From: Bdellovibrionales bacterium
Lineage (GTDB): Bacteria > Bdellovibrionota > Bdellovibrionia > Bdellovibrionales > UBA1609
NCBI GenBank assembly: GCA_965219095.1
Contig: CBDCMT010000001.1
Location: forward strand, 1,760,001-1,824,000
Reading direction: 5' to 3'
Length of the DNA: 64,000 nt
Each line of letters starts with the position of its first letter. The first letter of the stretch is position 1. Under the pieces are notes generated by a model. That model had not been told where the DNA came from. It saw nothing but the letters and a program-made list of their open reading frames with translations, and did no database searches. The translations under genes were made by a program, and so were the position numbers. This document shows, piece after piece, positions 1 through 25,030 of this stretch.

Positions 1-324
1 TTTTATACCTGTTTGAGGATTTCATGGATAAAAATTTAATGAGCTTAGCCCATTTTAGAGAAGAGAGATTGTAGTTTTTAAAAAACAAAAAAGGGAGTAA
101 AAACAAGTGATGAATTGATGATGAGAACTCCACAGTGAAAAAATATTTTTAAGCGTTATAACTTATTGAAATTATTTATTTTTTAGCTATCTTCTGCAAA
201 TTTAAAAAACCTGCCTGACCCCTATTTCAGCTTTTTTAAAAACTCTTAAGCTAAAGGGTTAAAAAAAAATAAAAAACTATCACTTAAGTTAGAAATTAAA
301 AGAATAAAAAAGAAAGGTTTATTT

Positions 325-573
325 ATGAAAAGAAATAAATTAAATAAAGACATAAAAAGAAAAGGAATAAAAGTTAAGAAGAAAGTAGCACGTCTTATTC
401 TTGAAAAACGTACTTTTTTAAAATCAAAAGATCTTTTAAAAAAAGCTAATCAAAGCCCTTACGATAAGAAAGTAAAACCAAAAGACCTTGTTCAAAAATC
501 CATTTCTCTTATCACTGATGAACATTTTTTTGAACTCAAAAACGCAAAACACCTTCAAATCAAGATCATATAG
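325..573 (+). CDS. Hypothetical basic protein, possibly a relic
   Basis: ORF with AAAGG upstream; no recognisable motif. Confidence 0.3.
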   Translation: MKRNKLNKDIKRKGIKVKKKVARLILEKRTFLKSKDLLKKANQSPYDKKVKPKDLVQKSISLITDEHFFELKNAKHLQIKII

Positions 574-575
574 AC

Positions 576-826
576 ATGAAATTTAAACAGTACAAAAAAC
601 AAAAAAAGAGTTTAAAGCTTCTTATGAAGATAGAAGGAGAATCTCAAGACCTTGTAAGCCTAAAAGCTCAAAGCCAAATTCTTCAAGGAAGTGCTATAAA
701 AACAGACTTAAAGAATCTTTTTGAGACCAAAATGAAGATCGAACATGATGTTTTTAAGAGCTTAAAAGTAGGTCAGGCTGTACTCATTGATAAGATCAAA
801 ACTTCACAAGATTTGTTTCAAATTTT
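576..826 (+). pseudogene. Internally deleted remnant of a VirD4/TraD coupling protein
   Basis: NLFETKMKIEHDVFKSLKVGQAVLIDKIKTSQDLFQI and QDLVSLKAQ closely match the intact gene at 39693..41321; cut by the IS66 end at 827. Confidence 0.85.
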
Positions 827-1496
827 GTAACTGCTCACCTACATTGTTCATTTATCCCTAACTTTAGACCTGTTTTAAGATAAAAGTCTTGCTCTTACAG
901 ATTTTCTTTTAAATACTTTTTTCAAATGACAATAAATAAGACCTCCATCAGAAATGAGATTGAAAATATAAGAAGTGACTTTGATAAGCTTGCAAAGAAA
1001 GGTTCTGTGCCTACTGAGATTTCTGTGATTGTTGAATCCCTCTTTAAGGTCATGAACATTCTGATTGTTGTGCTTTTAGAAAAACAGGTTCGAAAAAATT
1101 CCAGCAACAGCGGTCTTCCTTCTTCGCAAGATTTTAGTCGTCAAGGGAATCGTAAGGCTTAAAAGAGCTTCCAGAATTTCCTAAGAAAAATGGCAAGAAA
1201 GGACGACTAAAGCATACACAAGCTCAGAACCTTTGGCTGCGATTTAAAAAGTATGAAGCAGAAATACTGTGTTTTTCTAAAAGAAAGAACGTAGATCCTA
1301 CTAATAACAGAGTTGAAAGAGATCTAAGAATGACTAAGGTGAAAAAGAAAGTGTCAGGGTGTTTCAGAACAGAAGAAATGGCGAAATATTTTTGTCGTAT
1401 TACCAGCTATGTTAAAACAATGAGAAATAGAGGATATTCTTCTTTAGAAGCGATCTCTATGGCTTTAAATAAAAACTTACGAGAGTGAGCAGTTAC
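827..1496 (+). mobile_element. Internally deleted IS66-family element
   Basis: Perfect 12-bp TIRs GTAACTGCTCAC (827-838) and GTGAGCAGTTAC (1485-1496); N-terminal KNSSNSGLPSSQD and C-terminal PTNNRVERDLRMTKVKKKVSGCFRT IS66 transposase motifs; no TSD seen. Confidence 0.85.
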
Positions 1497-1623
1497 GATT
1501 CAAGATAATTTGAATTGATTTTTAGGAGGGTTAACTTAGGGCGTCATGAATTTAAAAAAGGTTCAAGATAACTTAAGTTGACTTAAAGATTTAAAATGAC
1601 TTAAAATTTATAGGATTTATGAA

Positions 1624-1693
1624 TAATGACAAGGCTTAGATGTTCCATCTATTCCCCCTAGGAGAAGAGACTGAAAACTAAACGGAAGCACTA
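1624..1693 (+). mobile_element. Degenerate 70-bp MITE copy
   Basis: Same length as, and alignable to, 17987..18056 and 62062..62131; ends in AAACGGAAGCACTA. Confidence 0.7.
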
Positions 1694-1710
1694 TTATATA
1701 GAGTAGAAAA

Positions 1711-2925
1711 ATGTCAGTAAAAATATGCAAAGTAAAGCTTCAGAATATTAGGTGCTTTAAAGAGGCTGAATTGTCTTTTGAAGATGACAAACAGAACTCG
1801 AAAAATTGGACGCTCCTTATTGGAAACAATGGCCAAGGAAAAACCACTTTTTTGAGGAGCATTGCTATGGGTTTGTGTCCAGCAGGCGAAGCTTCGGGGC
1901 TTCTTGCAGAGCTTCATAATGGCATACTCAGATCCGGTGAGAAAAAAGGTTTAATTGAAATTGAGCTAAAAGATCCAAACAAAACTTATAAAATTAGAAA
2001 TGAATTAGAGCTAAAAGGAAGTGAAGAAGTTCTAAAACAGACAGTTGAAGGGGGAGATAGAAAAGATTTTGAAAATGCCCTTTTTGTGGTAGCCTATGGC
2101 TCAGGACGTAGCATTGAAGGAACAGAGTCTTATTTAGAGTATGCTATTGTGGATTCAGTTTATGGGCTTTTTAACTCCACTTATACCCTTCAAAATGCTG
2201 AGCTTTCGGCACGAAGACTTTCAACAGATGAAAAGGGAGAAGAAAAACTTTTTGAATTACTAAAAAAAGTTTTACGTCTAGAAGACAACGATAGAATCGT
2301 TTTGAAAACGAATGGTCTTTTTATTAAGAGTATTTGGGGGGAGATTCCTTTTCAAGCTTTAAGTGATGGGTACAAATCTGTTACAACAACTATTTTAGAT
2401 TTTTTAAGTTGGAAGCAACTTCAAGAGAAGCAAGGAATGAAGGAAGACATTTCAGGGATTTTTATCCTTGATGAAGTCGAGCAACACCTTCATCCAAGTT
2501 GGCAGAGAGAAATCATAAAAATTTTATCAAAGATATTTCCTAAAGTGCAATTTATAGGGGCCACCCATGCTCCTATATGTGCTTTGGGATCGGCTGATGT
2601 AGAAAGTACACAGATTGCAAAAACTTCTTATGTAAATGGATATAGTGAAATAGAACCTTTTGATCTTCTCAAAGATTATAAAGGTTACCGAGTTGATCAA
2701 ATACTTACATCTCAACTATTTGATTTAAAGAGTTCTAGAAATATTGAAACACAACAAAAGCTTGATGAATATGCAGATCTTTATCTAAAAGAGAAGCTTA
2801 GCAATGAAGACGATAAGAGAAAAAAAGAGTTACAAAAAGAGCTTAAAAAATTACCTCTCTGGGAAACTGAAAGGGACAAGCTTGTCTTAGAGAAACTTTC
2901 AAAATCCTTAGGCTCACAAAACTAG
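1711..2925 (+). CDS. ABC/AAA_21-type ATPase, Septu PtuA-like
   Basis: Walker A GNNGQGKT, signature LSDGY, Walker B ILDEVEQHLHP, H-loop ATHAP, followed by an HNH gene. Confidence 0.85.
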   Translation: MSVKICKVKLQNIRCFKEAELSFEDDKQNSKNWTLLIGNNGQGKTTFLRSIAMGLCPAGEASGLLAELHNGILRSGEKKGLIEIELKDPNKTYKIRNELELKGSEEVLKQTVEGGDRKDFENALFVVAYGSGRSIEGTESYLEYAIVDSVYGLFNSTYTLQNAELSARRLSTDEKGEEKLFELLKKVLRLEDNDRIVLKTNGLFIKSIWGEIPFQALSDGYKSVTTTILDFLSWKQLQEKQGMKEDISGIFILDEVEQHLHPSWQREIIKILSKIFPKVQFIGATHAPICALGSADVESTQIAKTSYVNGYSEIEPFDLLKDYKGYRVDQILTSQLFDLKSSRNIETQQKLDEYADLYLKEKLSNEDDKRKKELQKELKKLPLWETERDKLVLEKLSKSLGSQN

Positions 2926-2933
2926 GAAGCTAA

Positions 2934-3662
2934 ATGATAAAAATTGAAAAAGGTACCCCTCCAACAAACACAAAGCTAGAGCAAAGCACATTGAGTCGTG
3001 AAGGAGCCAAAAAACCAGAGGAAATTAAACCTCTTTGGAAAGACCCTAAGATCAAAGAATTTCTAAGCGAAAGACAGCATGGAAAATGTTGCTATTGTGA
3101 AAGAAGAAGAGATGTGAGAAGAGAATCTGACGTGGAGCATTTCCGTCCGAAAAATGCTGTGGAAGAAGATCCAAATCATAAAGGATACTGGTGGCTTGCT
3201 CATGATTGGGACAATCTTTTGGTTTCATGTAAAAGTTGCAATCAGGAACATAAAAAAACACAGTTTCCCTTAAAAGAAGGTTCTCCTCGTGCTGACAGTA
3301 AAAATCGTGATTTAACACAAGAGAAACCTCTTTTGATCAATCCCTTAGAAGAAGATCCAGAAAAGTCTATAGAATATGACCTTGATGATTGTACTATGGT
3401 TAAGGCTATTGGCAAAAATGAGAAGGGAGAAAGAACTATTGAAATAACAGACTTGAACTCAACAGAAAAAATGAGAGAAAGACTAGAATTCAAAGAAACA
3501 TTAAAACTGATTTATGACATTCTTAAGAAAGATCCAATTAACAGCTATCAGAATCCGAGATCAGATCCTCCGGAGTTAGAAATTTATAGTAACCCTAATA
3601 GTCGATTTTGTGGTTTAGCAAAGTTCTTTTTAAAAAGTAAAAGAATTATACACTTAATATAA
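2934..3662 (+). CDS. HNH endonuclease, Septu PtuB/TIGR02646-like
   Basis: KCCYCE, DVEHFRPK, YWWLAHDWDNLLVSCKSCN, LLINP motifs. Confidence 0.88.
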   Translation: MIKIEKGTPPTNTKLEQSTLSREGAKKPEEIKPLWKDPKIKEFLSERQHGKCCYCERRRDVRRESDVEHFRPKNAVEEDPNHKGYWWLAHDWDNLLVSCKSCNQEHKKTQFPLKEGSPRADSKNRDLTQEKPLLINPLEEDPEKSIEYDLDDCTMVKAIGKNEKGERTIEITDLNSTEKMRERLEFKETLKLIYDILKKDPINSYQNPRSDPPELEIYSNPNSRFCGLAKFFLKSKRIIHLI

Positions 3663-4810
3663 TGAAACCCTCCTTTCTTTCATTCAAAGAAGTTGTGAAA
3701 ACTCCCTGTTTTATTTTTAATAAAGAAAAATTAATAGAGAACCTTTCTTTTTACAAAATCTTTAAAAAAAAATCTTGCTTTAAACTTTTGTACTCGTTAA
3801 AGTCTCTCTCCCTTATTGAGGCTCTTGAGATTATCTCAGAGCATGTGGATGGCTTTTCTGTAAGCTCACTTTTTGAAGCTAAACTTGCTCAAAAGATAAA
3901 AAAGAAAGGCCAAACAATTCATTTTGTATCTCCTAGAATTAAAAAAGAAGAGCTAGATGAACTTACCTCTCTTTGTCATTTTATCTCCTTTAACTCGCTA
4001 GATCAATTTTTGAGATTTTCTAAAAGCACAAGTTCAAGCATAGGGCTAAGAATTAACCCTGATATTTCTTTTTTAAAAGACGAAAGATATGACTCTTGTA
4101 GAAAATTTTCGAAGTTAGGAGAAAGCTTTGAGAATTTGAAAGCAAATTTTACAAATTCAAATTTAAAAAATGTTCATGGGCTTCATTTCCATAATAACTG
4201 TGAAAGCGAAAATTTTTTAGAACTTACCGAAACTTTTTCAAAAATAGAGACTCAACTAAAAGATATGTTTATAAATTTAAAATGGCTTAATCTTGGAGGG
4301 GGATATTTTGTTAAAAATTTGAGAGCTTCTGCTCCTTTATTGGAACTTCTTAGTTATTTAAATAAAAATTATGAATTTAATATCATTCTAGAACCCGGCG
4401 CAGATATTGTAAGAAGCGCTGGTTTTCTTGTGGGATCTGTGATTGATCTTATAAAAAGAGACCGAAAAAGCATTGCTATCCTAGATACAACAGTAAATCA
4501 TCTTCCAGAAGTTTTTGAATATCAATACGAACCTGATGTTTTGGGACATAAAAAAGAAGCTCCTTATGAGTACATTCTAGCTGGTTGCAGTTGTCTTAGC
4601 GGAGACTTGTTTGGCTCTTATCAATTTGAAGAACCTCTAAAAATAGGCTCCCAAATCATCTTCCAAAATGTCGGGAGCTACTCTCTAGTGAAAGCTCATA
4701 TGTTTAATGGCATAAACCTCCCTGATATTTACTTAGTCGAGGGATCTAGTTTTAAACATGTGAAGAGCTTTGACTTTGAAGACTATTTAAGCCAGCATGG
4801 CAATAGATGA
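3662..4810 (+). CDS. nspC: Carboxy(nor)spermidine decarboxylase-like PLP enzyme (fold type III)
   Basis: TPCF, YSLKS (PLP lysine), GLRINP, GLHFHNNCE, NLGGG, LEPG, GCSCLSGDLFG, YSLVKAHMFNGINLP; start overlaps the HNH stop (TAATG). Confidence 0.8.
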   Translation: MKPSFLSFKEVVKTPCFIFNKEKLIENLSFYKIFKKKSCFKLLYSLKSLSLIEALEIISEHVDGFSVSSLFEAKLAQKIKKKGQTIHFVSPRIKKEELDELTSLCHFISFNSLDQFLRFSKSTSSSIGLRINPDISFLKDERYDSCRKFSKLGESFENLKANFTNSNLKNVHGLHFHNNCESENFLELTETFSKIETQLKDMFINLKWLNLGGGYFVKNLRASAPLLELLSYLNKNYEFNIILEPGADIVRSAGFLVGSVIDLIKRDRKSIAILDTTVNHLPEVFEYQYEPDVLGHKKEAPYEYILAGCSCLSGDLFGSYQFEEPLKIGSQIIFQNVGSYSLVKAHMFNGINLPDIYLVEGSSFKHVKSFDFEDYLSQHGNR

Positions 4811-6198
4811 GGCTTTTTGAAAAAGAAATCTTACTATCAGATAGAAAAAAAAATAAAAGTGATCTTTTTTATTTGAAAAAAGATTTGACAGAGAAACTAG
4901 AAAAAGACAGCCTTTTTCCCATACGAGTAGCTGTTACTTCTAGTAATGAAAATTTGCTTAAATGTGAGGTTGGTGTTGTTGAAAAAAGCGAAGATTTTTG
5001 TAAAACAAAAGACAGCTTATTTGATTTTGAAAGGAGGAAGTTTGAAAATACTGGAAAGTTTAATGTTGTTTTTCTAGTTCCCACAGGAATAGGAGCTGAA
5101 ATTGGAGGTCATGCAGGAGATGCAACTCCTGTGGCGAAGTTGCTATCTTCTGTTTGTGATAATTTGATCACTCATCCTAACGTTTTTAATGGCTCAGACA
5201 TCAATGAAATGACTGAAAACAGCTTGTATGTTGAGGGGAGTATTATTTGTAGGCTTTTAATGGGAACAGCGGGGTTACAACCTGTTCGTGCAAATAGAGT
5301 CTTAGCAGTGATAGGTCAAAATGAACACAGTATTTTTGAAAGTTCTGCCGTTAACTCTGTTAATGCTGCTAGAGCGACATTAGGTTTAGATTGCCCCAAA
5401 ATTTTAAAAAGCTCCTCTTTAACGAAGATGTCTTCTTTTTACTCTTCCTCTGAAAGAGCTGTAGGAGTCGTTGAGAATATAAACAGCTTGTTTTCTCTTC
5501 TTGAAAAGGAAACAAAAAATTTTGATGCAATTGCTATATCTTCAGTTATAAAAGTACCTAAAAACTATCATATTGATTACTTCAAAAGTTGGGGAAAAAT
5601 GATCAATCCTTGGGGGGGAGTTGAGGCCATGTTGACTCATGCACTCTCTTATAAATTTAATGTTCCTTCTGCTCATGCTCCTATGTTTGAATCTCCTGAA
5701 ATTGCCAATATGGACACAGGAATTGTTGATGTAAGAGCTGCCTCTGAGGCAGTTTCTACTACTTTTTTCCATTCTGTCCTTAAAGGACTTCATAAAAGCC
5801 CAAAAGTCATTACAGATAGAAAAGTTTTTAATTCTCATGATATTTTATCTGCAAAAGATATTTCTTGTCTTGTAATTCCTGATGGCTGTTTAGGTTTACC
5901 AACTTTAGCAGCACTGGAGCAAGGGATAAAAGTCATTGCTGTAAAAGAAAATCAAACTCTTATGAAAAACAATTTGGAAAAACTTTCTTGGAGAAAGGGA
6001 CAGTTTTTTCAAGCTGAAAATTATTTAGAGGCTGTCGGGCTATTGAACTCTATAAAAACTGGAATCAATGTGACTTCCGTTAGAAGACCTTTTAAGACTT
6101 TAAAGTTATTTAATTCTGAAAAGCAGATTAAAATAGATAAAGATAATAAAGGCGAAGAGGTTAGGGCATCTCCTTATTTCACTAGACCTTTATTTTGA
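4807..6198 (+). CDS. DUF3326-like protein with N-terminal extension
   Basis: VPTGIGAEIGGHAGDA, LITHPNVFNG, LYVEG, AARATLGL, NPWGGVEAMLTH, PSAHAP recall the DUF3326 consensus; ATGA overlap with nspC. Confidence 0.75.
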   Translation: MRLFEKEILLSDRKKNKSDLFYLKKDLTEKLEKDSLFPIRVAVTSSNENLLKCEVGVVEKSEDFCKTKDSLFDFERRKFENTGKFNVVFLVPTGIGAEIGGHAGDATPVAKLLSSVCDNLITHPNVFNGSDINEMTENSLYVEGSIICRLLMGTAGLQPVRANRVLAVIGQNEHSIFESSAVNSVNAARATLGLDCPKILKSSSLTKMSSFYSSSERAVGVVENINSLFSLLEKETKNFDAIAISSVIKVPKNYHIDYFKSWGKMINPWGGVEAMLTHALSYKFNVPSAHAPMFESPEIANMDTGIVDVRAASEAVSTTFFHSVLKGLHKSPKVITDRKVFNSHDILSAKDISCLVIPDGCLGLPTLAALEQGIKVIAVKENQTLMKNNLEKLSWRKGQFFQAENYLEAVGLLNSIKTGINVTSVRRPFKTLKLFNSEKQIKIDKDNKGEEVRASPYFTRPLF

Positions 6199-6199
6199 A

Positions 6200-6320
6200 A
6201 TTTAAGCCAAATAAATGTATAGCCCGAGTTTGAAATTAACAATAGACCTATGAAATATTTTGACTGGAGGACTCCTTATGAAATTATGATGGAGTAGGTT
6301 GCACTAGCAAATTGCAGTTA
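6200..6320 (+). pseudogene. IS30-family transposase 3' remnant
   Basis: Translates as EINNRPMKYFDWRTPYE, followed by a GTTGCACT terminal-like sequence. Confidence 0.6.
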
Positions 6321-6377
6321 GGGAGTTTTAAATTATGCCAAAAAAGAAATTTTTGAAAAAAAAGGAAAAAACAACCC

Positions 6378-6462
6378 CTAAAGAAAATTAAAAAAAATAC
6401 CGAAGAGGATGGCAAGCAACAGTGATGATTTAGATCGTTCGGTTTATTAGGAGACTCAGATC
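6378..6462 (+). repeat. Segment homologous to ICE sequence 51668..51751
   Basis: Direct alignment, e.g. GAAGAGGATGGCAAGCAACAGTGATGATTTAGATCG vs GAAGAGGATGGTAAGCAATAGTGATGACCTAGATCG. Confidence 0.85.
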
Positions 6463-6469
6463 CCTTATC

Positions 6470-6482
6470 GGTGAGCAGTTAC
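6470..6482. mobile_element. Solo IS66 terminal inverted repeat
   Basis: GGTGAGCAGTTAC, the reverse complement of the end at 827-839. Confidence 0.65.
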
Positions 6483-6842
6483 TGCGAAACAAAGAAAGGT
6501 CGCTTAAACATGAAATCGCCCTCTAAAATTCCACCGAGAAATGAGACATCCTCCTAACCTTGGGGGGGAGCCCTGTGGTTTTCAGGCAAGCATGAATCTT
6601 CTTGAGCCTAGGCACAGGTATAATTTTCAATATAAAGTCATAGACTTTTTTACAAAAAATCGGCAATTTTTTCATCTTTATAAGCTCAACTGTTAAGTTA
6701 TTAAGTGATACTTCCGTAAAGTAATTATGGAAAGGTTCATGACACTTTAAGTTGACTTTAGTAAAGATTAACTTATTGTTATGAACCTATGGAAATAAAT
6801 AGATTTGAATAGCTTTAACTTTATTGACAGAAAAATTTAAAA

Positions 6843-8098
6843 ATGAAGAATGATAGAAAAAAGTCTGTAAAAGAACGAGTTGCAAATTTATTTACATATG
6901 TAAAAGAAATTAAGTCACGACTAGAACCGCCAACTTTAGATGAATCTAAATATGAATGGAGATTAAAGCTAACTGATCTTCCAGACCATCCATATATTTT
7001 TACAAAGCCCACAGAAGATTACTTTTTTAAGGTTAAGCGTCCTAAAGTCATCGACTGCCCGACTCCCCCACAAGAAATTCAACAATGGATAAAGCCTTCA
7101 TGGAAATATATAGATAAGGAGTTAGATTACTTAAAGTCTAGAAATATTCTTAATGAAGATGAGACATCGACAACAATATACATAGAAGACTTCCCAGAGA
7201 TAGAAGCTAAAATCGAAACATTTAAAAAGACTAGAGATGATTGGAAAAAAGCTGAGTTCCCCAGCGAAGAAGTGAGGAAAGTATTCTCTATTCTTCATGA
7301 GGCAAAAGCTCGAATTGAGAGAGATAGTGACGGGATTCAGCTTTATCTTACAGAAGGTGTTTTGATATTTAATTATCAAAATATGAAAGTAAATCACCCC
7401 CTGCTCTTTAAAGAAATTGCTATTGAATTAGATGGGGAAAAGGATGAGCCAGAAATTTCTATAACGAAGTCTTCTACAGATAGTGCTATGTTCATTTCAC
7501 TACTTCGAAAATTAGACGTAAGTGGAAGTATGCTGAATACATTAAAAGAAGAGTTTTCAAAGCTTGAAATAGATCCTGATGATGATAAAGAGAAGTTATT
7601 TTTAAAAAATTTGGTTCATAGATTATGGTCAGATGGAAAATTTTCAGAAAACAGAATCAGTCCAAGTGAGACACCGATTATTTTTTTAGAACAAAAACTG
7701 ATAATTGGACGCAAAGAAAGCTCTTTTTCAGAACAAATTGATAATTATATTAAAAAAATACATGAAATTGATGTGCTCCCTGTAGCGTATCAAAATATGG
7801 TTGGTTCTTTTGAAGAACCTAAAATGTCTTCTCTAAATGGAAATGGTTCTACTCCACAACTTCCTAAGAGTAAAAAAAGCTATTTTCTAACAAAAGAATA
7901 TAACATAGAACAAAAAAAAATAATTAATCTTTTGGAAGCTACAGGATGTGTAAGTGTTCAAGGGCCACCAGGGACAGGGAAGAGTCATACTATTGCAAAT
8001 CTTGTTGGACATCTTTTAGCAAAAGGTCAAAGTGTTTTAATTTCAGCACACAGATCAAAGGCTTTAGAGGTAATTAGAGATCAAGTTGTAGAAAGTAT
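6843..8098 (+). pseudogene. Superfamily I (Upf1/AAA_11-like) DNA helicase, 5' part, truncated by IS
   Basis: VQGPPGTGKSHTIANLVGHLLAKGQSVLISAH; the ORF runs into the IS TIR at 8099; the rest of the gene was not found. Confidence 0.8.
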
Positions 8099-9614
8099 CC
8101 TGAAATCTGTTAATTTTGGTACTAGGTTTTTATTCGGCCCTCGTAATGCTTCGCATTAGTCGGAGGGGATTTTACAACTTAAAGCTGTGTGGGATTTCTT
8201 GAGTCACATTAAAAGCTTTATAAAGGCTCTTTTGCTTACCGGACAACTCTCCTAATCTTGTTTGTCCTGTGGCCAATTTATAGAACTTTAATTTATCTAA
8301 AATTTTATAGACCTCTGTTTTTGAAAATTTCTTGTACAGATTCTTTTCTTTCATCACATTGTTTATGTGAGAGATTAAAATTAAAGCTATAAAGTTAATA
8401 AATAAACTTCCTCTCATGGTTTGTAGCGAATGAGTCCTCGCTCGCTTTTCATTTATATCATGCTTGAAAGACAAAAAAATCTTTTCAATGCTATCTTTGT
8501 TTCTATACAACCCTAAGATCTCATCTTTTGAAAGCTTTTGATCGCAATCGGTAAGTAAAATCAACACACCCATTTTTCGCATCTGCTTTTTAATATAATC
8601 CAAATCTTTCGAAATAAAAAAACTTCCCTTTTTCTTGACAACTGTAAAGCGCTTCTTGGCACTCTTTAAGGTTTCTGCTATGCACTCATCGCACTCTTTC
8701 TTTGTCCTAAATTTCTTCTTAGAAAATCTTCGCTCAAAACAATCCAACTTCAATAGCATTTCATTTTTTTTAGACACCCTTCTCTTTTCATCCAAATATA
8801 TATGAGCCATACAACGAGTCTTTCCAATTTTAATTTCTCGTCTGCAGTAAGAATAAACTTGACCACGGAATACAAACGAAGAGGGAATTGAATCAAGCTC
8901 CTTACTCACAGATCCCAATAAAGCATGGGATAGACTCGTACTAAAGCTCATAGGGACGATGTACGATGAAGCCTCCCTGTTTAAATCTTTTATGTTTTCT
9001 TGGCTGTAAAACCCTTTATCTAAAACAAAACACTTCAAATCTAAATCGTATTCCTTTTAAAAAAAGACAAATAAAGAACCTTCTCATATTCTTTCGGAAA
9101 AACTTTCTTTAACACCTTCACTAAATTTAATTGCTTGCTGATCTCTCGCAAAAGATGCACCCCCCCAACACCTACAGAACCTATAGGATGTTTGTTCAAC
9201 TTGGCTTCAAGCTTCCCCGTAGATTGATTCTTCTTGCCCAAATAAACTCTTCTCTGACGAGATTGTTTTTTTTCTTTGTCCCAGTAACTGCTTATCTCAT
9301 ACACATAGATGCTTCCATTTCTTTTCTCTTCATACCTATAAGACATAGTTCAAATTGAACTATGTTTTAGGGGCTTTGTCAACTCCCTGTTGATGGCTCA
9401 AAACTCTTAACGACAGGATCAAATTTCAATCCAAAAACAGAGCCTATGAAAAACATAGCTTTAAAAAGACCTATAAAAATAGTGTGTTATAAGTTCTCCA
9501 GAAAAACTCAATGAGACTAAATTAACTCGTTCTTATGATTTATCAGGAGTATTCTGTTGAAAAAAAACAGGCTCTTAGTCCTGAAACCTAGTACCAAAAT
9601 TAACAGATTTCAGG
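8099..9614 (-). mobile_element. IS1634-like element (IS4 superfamily) with split, internally deleted transposase (9041..9346 + 8172..9038)
   Basis: Perfect 31-bp TIRs CCTGAAATCTGTTAATTTTGGTACTAGGTTT at 8099-8129 and 9584-9614; VLDKGFYS and YRNKDSIEKIF motifs. Confidence 0.85.
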
Positions 9615-9774
9615 TAATGTAAGTCATGCGATTGAGAATTGAGGTTTTAATTTGTGCTCTAAGCTCATCTTACGAGTTAAAGCCAAAAACGATCTGAGTT
9701 TATATACACCACTCTGATTTTATACACCGCACTATTTATTGATTGTCTTATCAAACAAAAAAATTAAAAATCTA

Positions 9775-10162
9775 GGGCGTGTCCTCATTTGACTGGACCT
9801 TTGCTTTGAAGTTTAAGCCAAATAAACATACACGCTATAGATAGTATAGCTTTGAAATTTCTAGCAAGCTTTTCAAATCGAGTAGCAATGCCTCTAAAAT
9901 GTTTAAGACGAGCAAAAAGGTTTTCTATCTGATGTCGAGATTTATAAATATGACGATCAAAATCTTTATTTTTCTTTTTGCTATTTTTTCGTCTCGGTAT
10001 TACAGGCTTTATCTTCTTACTATGAGCTTTATCTCGTATCTCATCTGAATCATAGGCCTTATCAGCAATCAAATACTCACTATGAAACTCATCAATTAAA
10101 TCACCTGCAACTTGACTGTCGTGGACTTCACCCCCAGTGATTTTAAAACAGAGTGGGTGTCC
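9775..10162 (-). pseudogene. IS5-family transposase 3' fragment with right end
   Basis: IADKAYDS, YKSRHQIENLFARLKHFRGIATRFEK; end GGGCGTGTCCTCATT; near-identical to 14090..14480. Confidence 0.85.
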
Positions 10163-16669: not shown

Positions 16670-17767
16670 TTAAAGATCGTTTTTAAGATAATAGACTCTC
16701 TGATTTGTAGCACCTTGAGAAACTATAATCTGTTTATCAATCAAATCTTTCAGAACTCTTTGTAGAGTTCTTCTTGTCACCTTAGATATTGTCTTATTTT
16801 TCATATTTTTATCTACTCGCCCCATCCTTATACAAATCTTGTCAAAGTCTTTAGAAGCAAGGCTTTCATGTTCTAAAATATGCTCAATAATTACTCTCTG
16901 TCGCTTCGACAGGCTGTATTTCTCTACAAGAGCATCTTTACGAATGACCTTTTTCCCTACAGCCATAACTTCGTTCATTTGAAATAAGAACCCTTCTATA
17001 AAGTACTCAAGCCAAACTGTCATGTCCATATCATTTTCTCTCACAGCTTGGATAGCGTTATAAAAGGACATACGATCTTTATCGTAATACTCACTAATAG
17101 AAAAAAGACGTTTAAAATCATAATCTGATTTATAAAGATATAAGGCACAAAGTAATCGAGAGGTGCGTCCATTTCCGTCAATAAATGGATGAATGTGTAC
17201 AAATTGAAATTGAATGATTCCGCTTTTTAATATAGAGTTGATTTTTGATTCTTCGTTAATCCAAGTAACGAATTCTCTCATAAGCCGAGGAATGTCTTCT
17301 GGTTTAGGGGGAGTATAAATAACTTTTTCAGTTAAAGAGTTGACAACATAATTTTGAACATCTCTATAAATTCCAGGTTTGGCACTGTCTCCACGCACTC
17401 CTTTTACAAGCTCTTTATGAATAGACTTAATAAGAATCTCTTCGATTCTTTCATTTGTCTTTAAATGATTTGAAATAAGATGAAAGGCATCCTTATAGTT
17501 CTTTAACTCTTTTACATCTTCTTTATCAACTCTAGAAATAGTTTTCCCTTGTAAGATTTTTTTTGATTGATCTAGAGTTAGCTGTGTTCCTTCTATATGA
17601 GTTGTATGATGAGTTTCTACAAGGAAAGCATTACGGCTCATCTTTTTAATCCATTTATCAGAAAGTTTAGCAGCCTCTAGAAAACCTCTAGCTTTTTCAA
17701 TTTCCATAAGATTGTTCAACATGGATTGAGTAATTATAAATTTGGGATTGAACTTTTTGTTGCTCAT
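16670..17767 (-). CDS. Fic-family protein with C-terminal winged HTH
   Basis: HPFIDGNGRTSR catalytic motif; TTHIEG; C-terminal VTRRTLQRVLKDL. Confidence 0.92.
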   Translation of the reverse strand: MSNKKFNPKFIITQSMLNNLMEIEKARGFLEAAKLSDKWIKKMSRNAFLVETHHTTHIEGTQLTLDQSKKILQGKTISRVDKEDVKELKNYKDAFHLISNHLKTNERIEEILIKSIHKELVKGVRGDSAKPGIYRDVQNYVVNSLTEKVIYTPPKPEDIPRLMREFVTWINEESKINSILKSGIIQFQFVHIHPFIDGNGRTSRLLCALYLYKSDYDFKRLFSISEYYDKDRMSFYNAIQAVRENDMDMTVWLEYFIEGFLFQMNEVMAVGKKVIRKDALVEKYSLSKRQRVIIEHILEHESLASKDFDKICIRMGRVDKNMKNKTISKVTRRTLQRVLKDLIDKQIIVSQGATNQRVYYLKNDL

Positions 17768-23743: not shown

Positions 23744-25030
23744 TTAACTTTTCATCCATTTTAAGTATTCTGATATGATTTTTTCAAAACCTCGTAAAGA
23801 AGGTTTATAAAGTTTCAAGCCTTTTAGTTTTTCAGGTAGGAAATTTTGTGAAATATAACCTTTTTCACTATCGTGAGAATATTTGTAACTTTCTTTTGTG
23901 TTAAGATTTTTGACAAGAGAACTTGAGCTTAAAGCCTGAGGTATAGGAAGAGGACCTAAATCTTTTACAATCTTTTTAGCTTCTAGAAAGGCTTTGTATG
24001 AACGATTGGACTTAGGAGCACAGGCTAAGTAAGTGGTCACTTGAGCTAAATTAATACCACATTCAGGAAGTCCTACACTTTCTACAGCTTTGATCCCACT
24101 TGTAGCTATACTTAAAGCTCTAGGATCGCTGTTACCGATATCTTCTGAAGCAAAAATGATCAGACGTCTTGCTATAAAAAGAGGATCTTCTCCTCCTTCT
24201 AACATTCGAGCTAAATAATAAACAGCCGCATCAGGGTCACTACCTCTCATACTTTTAATAAACGCTGAGATACAGTTGTAGTGTTCCTCTTTAATCCCTC
24301 CGTAGTAGTTAGGACTAAACCATGTTTTTTCCAAAGTTTTAAGATCAATTTTGTGCGAATCAAAATGTCTTTGATTCACCAAAAACTCAATATGATTTAA
24401 AAGCTGTCTTGCATCTCCTTTACAGAGACAAATGAACTTTTCAAAAGCTTCCTTTTCAAAAACGTCCTGAGAAGCTAATTGATAAGTTTGTAAAGCTTTT
24501 TTAGCTAAAAGTTCTAAATCTTTTTTTTCAAGAGCTTCGAAAACAAAAAGTCTAAGTCGGCTTAAAAGAGCAGGGCTAAGTTGAAAGCTAGGGTTTTCTG
24601 TTGTAGCGCCTATTAAAATAAGATCATTTCTTTCCATGTAAGGTAAAAGCACATCTTGTTGAGTTCTATTTAAACGATGAATTTCATCAACAAATACACA
24701 AGTCATCTGAGAAAACTCTATTCGTTTTCTTCTTCCTTCTGTGCCTATTTCCTTGAGTTGTTTAGAACTTAAGTCTACAGCATTGAGAGACATCCAAAAA
24801 GTGTCGTTTAGGTATTGAGATAAAAGTCTTGCTAAACTTGTTTTCCCTGAGCCAGGAGGCCCCCAAAATACCATACTCGAAGGTTTCGTTTTAGAAAGAA
24901 AAACCCTTTTAAGCCAAGACGAAGCACCTATAATTTTGGTCTGCCCTAAAAAACTGTCAAGAATCTGAGGACGCATGGCCTCAGCCAAAGGAGCTATAGG
25001 GCAGATTTTATTCGTCTCAAATAAAGACAT
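23744..25030 (-). CDS. rarA: Replication-associated recombination protein A (MgsA/RarA)
   Basis: PLAEAMRP, WGPPGSGKT, FVDEIHR, GATTENPSF, SAFIKSMRGSDPDA. Confidence 0.95.
   Translation of the reverse strand: MSLFETNKICPIAPLAEAMRPQILDSFLGQTKIIGASSWLKRVFLSKTKPSSMVFWGPPGSGKTSLARLLSQYLNDTFWMSLNAVDLSSKQLKEIGTEGRRKRIEFSQMTCVFVDEIHRLNRTQQDVLLPYMERNDLILIGATTENPSFQLSPALLSRLRLFVFEALEKKDLELLAKKALQTYQLASQDVFEKEAFEKFICLCKGDARQLLNHIEFLVNQRHFDSHKIDLKTLEKTWFSPNYYGGIKEEHYNCISAFIKSMRGSDPDAAVYYLARMLEGGEDPLFIARRLIIFASEDIGNSDPRALSIATSGIKAVESVGLPECGINLAQVTTYLACAPKSNRSYKAFLEAKKIVKDLGPLPIPQALSSSSLVKNLNTKESYKYSHDSEKGYISQNFLPEKLKGLKLYKPSLRGFEKIISEYLKWMKS

Follow-up and report, generated by a model that had tools for sequence, protein, structure and literature searches.

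The subject of this report is a compact operon in which a Septu-type nuclease pair is joined to two putative amine-making enzymes. It occupies positions 1711-6198, on the + strand, of a 64,000-nucleotide (nt) stretch from a Bdellovibrionales bacterium (assembly GCA_965219095.1; contig C2 of our host genome G000, G000:C2:1760001-1824000), which we refer to as the window, and it encodes the ATPase PtuA, the HNH nuclease PtuB, a carboxy(nor)spermidine-decarboxylase-like protein and a protein of family DUF3326. Our overall reading, to which we assign a probability of roughly 60%, is that these genes make up an anti-phage variant of Septu that rides in a mobile or defence island, itself in decay, as part of its cargo, and that an amine produced by the two enzymes controls or assists PtuAB. 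Within this reading, we consider it quite probable that the four genes form a single operon and function together. The original prediction, made from the letters of the window, had proposed a candidate undescribed defence system; recurrence and operon-tight spacing bear out the core of that proposal, in that the genes look like one unit and a candidate Septu-type defence system.

All four open reading frames (ORFs) are uninterrupted, full-length and co-directional. The ptuA gene (1711-2925, +; 404 aa, a Septu-type ABC/SMC-like ATPase) ends in a TAG codon at 2923-2925 and is separated by an 8-nt gap, GAAGCTAA, from the ATG at 2934 of ptuB (2934-3662, +; 242 aa, an HNH nuclease). The ptuB stop codon TAA (3660-3662) shares one base with the ATG (3662-3664) of the decarboxylase gene (3662-4810, +; 382 aa), giving TAATG, and the ATG at 4807 of the DUF3326 gene (4807-6198, +; 463 aa, with an N-terminal domain of ~85 aa followed by the PF11805 core) overlaps the decarboxylase stop codon TGA (4808-4810) by four bases, giving ATGA. 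The original prediction had described four intact co-directional genes with these same junctions, together with an intact pyridoxal phosphate (PLP) lysine and catalytic cysteine motif in the decarboxylase, and these statements proved correct, the junctions as read from the sequence and the motifs by alignment with the solved enzyme 9eaf (K47 and CLSGD).

PtuA and PtuB carry the features by which Septu is recognised, namely a PtuA profile match with Walker A and B motifs, a PtuB profile match with the His/Cys residues, and adjacent co-directional ptuA and ptuB genes, and in the strength of their profile matches, the intactness of their motifs and their gene arrangement they resemble Septu type I. 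PtuA is matched by the PADLOC profile PDLC00292 (3e-65), by over 20 further PtuA models and by Pfam families AAA_15, AAA_21 and AAA_23, and has kept the Walker A motif GNNGQGKT, the Walker B/D-loop ILDEVEQHLHP and the H-loop ATHAP (alignment A2). PtuB matches PDLC00339 (1.2e-55) and TIGR02646 (59 bits, cut-off 52); its HNH/zinc-cysteine motifs CCYCE...DVEHFRPK...NLLVSCKSCN are present, and residues C52, C55, H69, N94, C99, C102 and N103 are invariant in its alignment (A3). Judged by these sequence features, the two proteins form a nuclease effector, as they do in Septu. However, Septu type I is a two-gene system, and the window adds two translationally coupled enzyme genes that are kept with this PtuA lineage.

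The decarboxylase contains the Pfam domains PF02784 and PF00278 and belongs to the alanine-racemase-fold PLP enzymes. Its best solved relatives are the carboxynorspermidine decarboxylase 9eaf (1e-68) and 3n29 (1e-62), and it aligns with 9eaf at K47, HFH, GGG, EPG and CLSGD, of which we take K47 to be the PLP lysine and the remaining motifs to be the active site. Its score with the nspC equivalog TIGR01047 is 299.1 bits and thus below the cut-off of 409.05, so the protein falls outside that equivalog; from its sequence, it is a divergent carboxy(nor)spermidine-decarboxylase-like enzyme. In the DUF3326 protein, PF11805 covers residues 87-425 (7e-94; 315 bits, cut-off 25; profile positions 2-336 of 337), and the AlphaFold model (predicted local distance difference test score, pLDDT, 80) consists of Rossmann-like alpha/beta domains. 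This protein is probably the partner enzyme of the decarboxylase. The two genes adjoin each other in many genomes (75 of the 80 genome loci described below have a decarboxylase next to DUF3326), and DUF3326 is also found fused to a C-terminal domain of the carboxynorspermidine/carboxyspermidine decarboxylase (CANSDC) type in single proteins of 818 and 831 aa. In one further protein, of 1106 aa, DUF3326 is joined to a carrier domain and to an adenylation domain of the AMP-binding type (P0125, P0126 and P0128 are the three fusion proteins).

In the classical route to spermidine-type polyamines, the amine-joining step is carried out by carboxyspermidine dehydrogenase (CASDH). We found no match to the saccharopine-dehydrogenase/CASDH family (PF03435) in G000, which is 94% complete, with a control that was positive in 13 of 14 genomes; S-adenosylmethionine decarboxylase (AdoMetDC) likewise had no match in G000, which has a spermidine-synthase-like gene. 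The missing CASDH fits a scenario in which DUF3326 takes over the amine-joining step. The window operon therefore resembles the CASDH/CANSDC (nor)spermidine pathway in that its decarboxylase is closest to solved CANSDCs, but differs from it in the sub-cut-off nspC score and in the lack of any CASDH-family gene in G000; DUF3326 occupies the place at which CASDH would be expected. The original prediction had treated DUF3326 as wholly uncharacterised, which is no longer the case: according to a preprint of June 2026, PavB is a DUF3326 protein, and PavA (in which a CANSDC-like decarboxylase is combined with a Rieske domain), PavB and PavC are each required for pavettamine, the C5-C5 triamine N-(5-aminopentyl)pentane-1,5-diamine appearing only when both PavA and PavB are there (bioRxiv 10.64898/2026.06.12.731819). 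By the fusions and by the PavA/PavB triamine, the enzyme pair is a functional couple, and our domain assignments suggest that decarboxylase and DUF3326 probably form a two-enzyme module making a polyamine-type amine. We also considered that the pair might be housekeeping equipment of the lineage and rejected this, since DUF3326 was found in only 2 of 40 relatives searched.

To follow the association from the DUF3326 side, we scanned one genome per species, kept the best 80 of 469 relatives, called ORFs in these 80 loci and compared these with each of the four proteins of the window operon and with a hidden Markov model (HMM) for the small gene that lies in the gaps, which proved to be AdoMet_dc (PF02675) in 8 of 8 proteins scanned. 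PtuAB lies beside DUF3326 in 22 of the 80 loci: the order PtuA-PtuB-nspC-like-DUF3326 is found in 12, and PtuAB with an AdoMetDC-fold decarboxylase and DUF3326 in 10, one of which (L083) has its gene order reversed. The loci in which PtuAB was not seen comprise 43 with an nspC-like gene and DUF3326, mainly from Dehalococcoidia, 10 with an AdoMetDC-like gene and DUF3326, and 5 with no visible decarboxylase; in 11 of these 58, the sequence available upstream is shorter than 3.5 kb. Linkage was seen in Bdellovibrionota, Thermodesulfobacteriota (including Dadabacteria), Fidelibacterota, Bacteroidota and Planctomycetota as well as in unclassified metagenome-assembled genomes (MAGs), and the cassettes closest to that of the window belong to Bdellovibrionales MAGs. 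On the DUF3326 tree the window falls in a clade of 15 rows (Shimodaira-Hasegawa-like approximate likelihood-ratio support, SH-aLRT, 94), 13 of which have PtuAB; of the other two, L009 is cut by a contig end and L018 has no PtuAB. Over the whole tree, the presence of PtuAB requires at least 8 changes. In this 15-row clade ptuA has been disrupted three times, by inserts of ~1 kb in L007 and L016 and by a frameshift in L013, and PtuAB is missing from L018, while intact enzymes are seen throughout the 14 evaluable loci. Variations in gene content were seen as well: L011 (4285-8840), from a Thermodesulfobacteriota MAG, has two tandem PtuAB pairs ahead of the enzymes, L015 (11411-12766), from another MAG, has an extra PtuA-like ATPase 3' of DUF3326, and the metagenome locus L107 has two DUF3326 genes.

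The association was also followed from the PtuA side. A metagenome scan matched at least 590 stretches with at least 293 relatives, of which we took the best 80, with PtuA proteins 32-41% identical to that of the window; 25 of these were not judged, having no PtuB match or less than 700 nt of sequence past PtuB. In 45 of the 55 evaluable loci a decarboxylase gene stands directly 3' of ptuB (40 AdoMetDC-like and 5 nspC-like), and 10 of the 55 have none. DUF3326 follows in 34 of the 45 decarboxylase-linked loci, 10 stop at a contig edge, and one (L143) has no DUF3326. The original prediction had named an nspC-DUF3326 pair next to PtuAB at this locus only as part of the outcome that would speak against it; the arrangement instead recurs in 22 of 80 genome loci and 45 of 55 metagenome loci, and is no neighbourhood formed by chance. 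Spacing is equally regular, with median gaps across all cassettes of -4, 5 and 3 nt (start codons being approximate): the gap from PtuB to the decarboxylase has a median of 5 nt and is at most 60 nt in 61 of 65 cases, and that from the decarboxylase to DUF3326 has a median of 3 nt and is at most 60 nt in 51 of 54.

On the PtuA tree, enzyme-linked rows are spread over the whole radiation. Two unrelated decarboxylase folds, the PLP type and the pyruvoyl AdoMetDC fold, alternate in the cassettes, with DUF3326 constant, and the nspC type appears at no fewer than 5 places on this tree, which indicates that the decarboxylase fold was swapped repeatedly as DUF3326 and PtuAB stayed together. The window's own PtuA clade (12 rows, support 100) is made up of the same loci as its DUF3326 clade. 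None of the ORFs flanking the window operon has a match in any fetched locus, and no conserved fifth gene was found for the window's clade; flanks are common to one another in just four Thermodesulfobacteriota loci. Given these matching clades and the lack of a common flanking gene, the unit that travels is exactly the four genes.

Other accessories are found in parts of this radiation. In six of the ten evaluable PtuAB loci that have no enzymes, a TIR domain is fused to the N-terminus of PtuA, one of the six (L140) being a contig-truncated ORF with a COR-TIR-PtuA architecture. Two more TIR fusions occur in non-evaluable loci, including a full LRR-Roc-COR-TIR-PtuA protein of 1337 aa in L132 (TIR-bearing loci: L127, L140, L141, L146, L154, L164, L132 and L120). 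An HMM built from these TIR domains matched no enzyme-linked PtuA in any fetched locus, so that TIR and the enzymes, never being found together on PtuA, look like alternative accessories. Additional genes also stand next to some enzyme-linked cassettes. Sixteen of 55 cassettes, each with an AdoMetDC-type decarboxylase, are immediately preceded by a gene, in either orientation, for a class-I aldolase resembling 4-HFC-P synthase/MfnB (PF04476, ~245 aa). A gene for a protein of ~272 aa is present in the flank of 8 of 55, in 7 of the 8 on the 3' side of DUF3326; one of three members of this family that were scanned gave a weak, sub-threshold match to nucleoside 2-deoxyribosyltransferase. One or the other gene is found in L027, L034, L061, L093-L095, L114, L115, L118, L119, L124, L128, L145 and L148-L150; the window contains neither of them, and a search of G000 for PF04476 gave no match.

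The enzyme pair also has a life of its own in viruses. In 50 of 53 viral DUF3326 loci (L172-L224) an AdoMetDC-like decarboxylase is encoded next door, and neither PtuA nor PtuB was found on any of the 53 contigs. In most viral DUF3326 proteins the sequence begins near the position of residue 85 in the window's homologue, whose N-terminal domain they therefore lack.

Among known systems, type I-A retrons (Ec78/Eco7) offer a precedent for an accessory that restrains PtuAB, as they too join PtuAB to a third component which controls it; the accessory in the window differs in being a pair of metabolic enzymes. In published work, stand-alone PtuAB nicks DNA, an activity damped by ATP, and PtuAB co-opted by retrons is held inactive via multicopy single-stranded DNA (msDNA) (PMC12819146), and Septu and retron-Eco7 have been tied to cleavage of tRNA-Tyr (PMC13096335). 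A type I-A retron with a PtuAB effector was rejected as an identity for the window operon: no reverse transcriptase domain was found in the ORFs scanned on either side of it, the retron-type equivalogs score far under their cut-offs (NF041760, 113.5 against 500; NF041761, 60.1 against 150), and in window positions 1-9000 Rfam gave nothing at E <=1 except a chance miRNA match. We likewise rejected a pavABC-type cluster. A core of CANSDC-like decarboxylase and DUF3326 is common to the window and to the pavettamine cluster of Burkholderia sensu lato, a likeness to PavB that is drawn from its family description rather than its sequence. However, the window decarboxylase has 382 aa and no Rieske domain, and its operon contains no JmjC/cupin gene, whereas PavA has a Rieske domain, PavC is a JmjC hydroxylase and the Pav cluster has no PtuAB. 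A search of the open literature, with most subscription journals outside its reach, turned up no account of a PtuAB pair combined with enzymes of this kind. The combination therefore appears undescribed, and the cassette is best filed as a variant of Septu.

How might the enzymes serve the nuclease? We propose that the PLP decarboxylase and DUF3326 would make a polyamine-type amine, with DUF3326 acting as a Rossmann-type enzyme that supplies the amine-joining step, and that the product, not the enzyme proteins, would link the enzyme module to PtuAB. The product is the preferred link because DUF3326 looks like an ordinary enzyme that is common to non-defence loci, the decarboxylase fold is interchangeable and no regulatory domain is visible. 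A complex prediction for PtuA, PtuB and DUF3326 (residues 87-430) gave a score of 0.00, which counts neither for nor against a contact. In the version that we favour, the amine would keep PtuAB inactive, like msDNA in retron-Septu. Infection would then lower the free amine, through host shut-off or through titration by replicating or packaged phage DNA, and the nuclease would be released, and enzyme pairs carried by phages would act as counter-defence by keeping the checkpoint satisfied. Besides the retron precedent, this version draws on the window's clade, in which PtuA is the gene that breaks or is lost and the enzymes stay intact. Restraint as the direction of control is nevertheless less likely than not, and it is doubtful that an operon-made polyamine-type metabolite is the immune checkpoint of this Septu nuclease, that is, a small-molecule 'antitoxin' replacing msDNA.

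Several observations weigh against a regulatory role of the amine and have to be set beside this proposal. Polyamines are usually stable, abundant metabolites, and such pools would be a poor fit for a labile checkpoint. PtuAB-linked DUF3326 proteins are 51-57% identical to those of Dehalococcoidia that occur without PtuAB, and there is therefore no sign of a specialised product. The persistence of intact enzymes beside broken or absent PtuAB in the window's clade would be equally explained if the enzymes are useful by themselves. In addition, L143 retains only a decarboxylase remnant and no DUF3326 beside an intact PtuAB, and an intact PtuAB lacking both the enzymes and TIR is found in L097 and L126, which makes an obligatory antitoxin role unlikely for all members of the radiation. 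For the DUF3326 protein, a sequence-profile search of the PDB returned nothing under E 0.1, and its model had no clear match in Foldseek and no usable match in the ESM Atlas. A wide VIA-align search of the model gave GT-B halves (Z ~10), lumazine synthase (9.3), saccharopine reductase 1e5l (9.2) and 4ina (8.6), matches that are generic Rossmann-like, lie in the common range of Z and point to no specific enzyme family.

Other explanations of the association can be weighed on the same evidence. An unlikely one casts the enzyme pair not as a restraint but as a further arm of the system, a metabolic effector or a source of signals, which would act beside the HNH nuclease on the small-molecule pool during infection, consuming a diamino acid or polyamine precursor or making a signal or a toxic amine, much as a TIR domain would. 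The alternation between TIR domains and enzymes noted above speaks for such a role, as do the cassettes that add further enzymes (the aldolase and the ~272-aa protein). However, the decarboxylase and DUF3326 are encoded separately and show no regulatory domain, nothing points to their being switched on by infection, near-identical pairs occur without PtuAB in Dehalococcoidia, and the frequency of the pair in phages suggests that its product helps phages rather than harms them. In another reading, the pair would be ordinary polyamine-synthesis cargo with no mechanistic link to the nuclease, PtuAB stabilising or defending the element or the pair offsetting a cost; the occurrence of the pair in phages, the 43 nspC-type and 10 AdoMetDC-type genome loci without PtuAB, the decay of PtuAB beside persisting enzymes, and a host that, having no CASDH-family or AdoMetDC match, may depend on the pair all speak for this. 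We nevertheless consider it rather improbable, as it leaves unexplained the fixed gene order, the gaps of a few nt and the linkage in 45 of 55 loci seen from the PtuA side, a linkage that has survived swaps of the decarboxylase fold, at least five phyla and differing flanks.

A very remote alternative follows the logic of restriction-modification: an amine that the enzymes produce or transfer would serve as a covalent label on the cell's own DNA or tRNA, which PtuAB would then leave uncut. The DNA nicking of stand-alone PtuAB and the tie of retron and Septu PtuAB to tRNA-Tyr cleavage speak for such a label (PMC12819146, PMC13096335), and one half of the predicted DUF3326 model resembles the halves of GT-B transferases. 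Nevertheless, neither enzyme matched a transferase family or one that binds nucleic acids, the structural resemblance is of the generic Rossmann-like kind, the triamine made by the corresponding pair of the Pav system is a free one, and phages carry copies without a nuclease partner. On balance, we therefore retain the reading in which an amine made by the operon controls or assists PtuAB.

The genomic setting of the operon suits a cargo module. The host genome (3.1 Mb, ~33% G+C) carries it inside a variable region of ~35 kb with housekeeping genes at both borders, namely those for a Clp ATPase, an M48 peptidase and a CCA/polyA polymerase on the left and for RarA/MgsA (window 23744-25030) on the right. 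The original prediction had placed the operon amid mostly broken genes, and this description holds: transposase fragments of at least four families flank the operon on both sides (DDE_Tnp_1, DDE_3, ISAZ013, ISL3 and IS66), and a helicase-like ORF is interrupted. The right-hand break of the cassette is marked by a 54-nt repeat resembling the end of an insertion sequence (6162-6215, +), which is 85% identical to a second copy at 9773-9826, directly beside a fragment of a DDE_Tnp_1 transposase. The repeat takes in the final 37 nt of the DUF3326 ORF and so touches solely the unconserved C-terminal tail. The helicase-like ORF lies 3' of the operon (6843-8159, within region 6843-9614); it has only P-loop matches to the defence helicases Hhe, ProA and MkoA and is cut at residue 438 by a 1.5-kb insert whose ends are perfect 31-nt inverted repeats (8099-8129 and 9584-9614) and whose two ORFs match nothing in Pfam. 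The same variable region also holds a fusion of a ResIII helicase and a TnsA-like nuclease (834 aa; L167 12405-14909), an Hjc-like nuclease gene upstream of the operon (L167 16031-16525) and a Fic gene (window 16670-17767), which may be other defence or toxin genes.

The left flank of the operon together with the first 315 nt of ptuA (827-2025, +) is present in a second, decayed copy on contig C1, identified by blastn at 93.5-96.7% identity to L225 10485-12568, with an IS66 transposase gene interrupting the copy. The whole paralogous stretch, L225 10485-17224, is 84-97% identical to window 827-2025 plus L167 15437-17209 and includes the Hjc-like region, and it stops inside ptuA at nt 315. After the ptuA remnant come genes for a Schlafen AlbA_2/HATPase_c_4 ATPase, a nuclease of the YhcG type and DruA of the Druantia system; a tyrosine integrase and the IS66 transposase gene are close by. 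The C1 copy looks like a member of the same island family with other defence cargo; since the left flank recurs with such different cargo, the cassette sits in the apparent cargo position of a repeated island.

Upstream of ptuA, a candidate promoter or operator (1557-1607, +) consists of the 28-nt motif AAAGGTTCAAGATAACTTAAGTTGACTT overlapping a sigma-70-like TTGACT-18-TAAAAT. The sigma-70-like site (1578-1607) scores 10/12, such sites being no commoner than in shuffles. Copies of the 28-nt motif are found in the window at 1557-1584, more weakly at 1494-1521, and at 6731-6758, and a 25-28-nt form, GGTTCAAGATAACTTAAGTTGACTT, includes the -35-like TTGACT. As a degenerate pattern, the motif has four matches in the genome and 0 in the reversed control; outside the window, copies lie at G000:C2:1757189 and G000:C1:444948. 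It stands 5' of ptuA, of the broken helicase gene and of the decayed C1 ptuA copy as well as at one more island site, and may represent a shared promoter or operator of island genes. The 5' leader of the operon folds no better than shuffles (z = 1.27).

To existing annotation tools, loci of this kind are plain Septu, and the two additional enzyme genes go unnoticed. What our analyses bring into view is a large radiation of PtuAB that is wired to an amine-making module or, alternatively, to a TIR domain, and as silencing and infection sensing by stand-alone Septu are still debated, this lineage provides a natural handle on both. If an amine does regulate the nuclease, it would be the first polyamine-type metabolite inside a dedicated anti-phage system, and this would explain why so many phages carry the enzyme pair. 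Moreover, it would give a biological setting to DUF3326, a widespread family with one genetic study so far.

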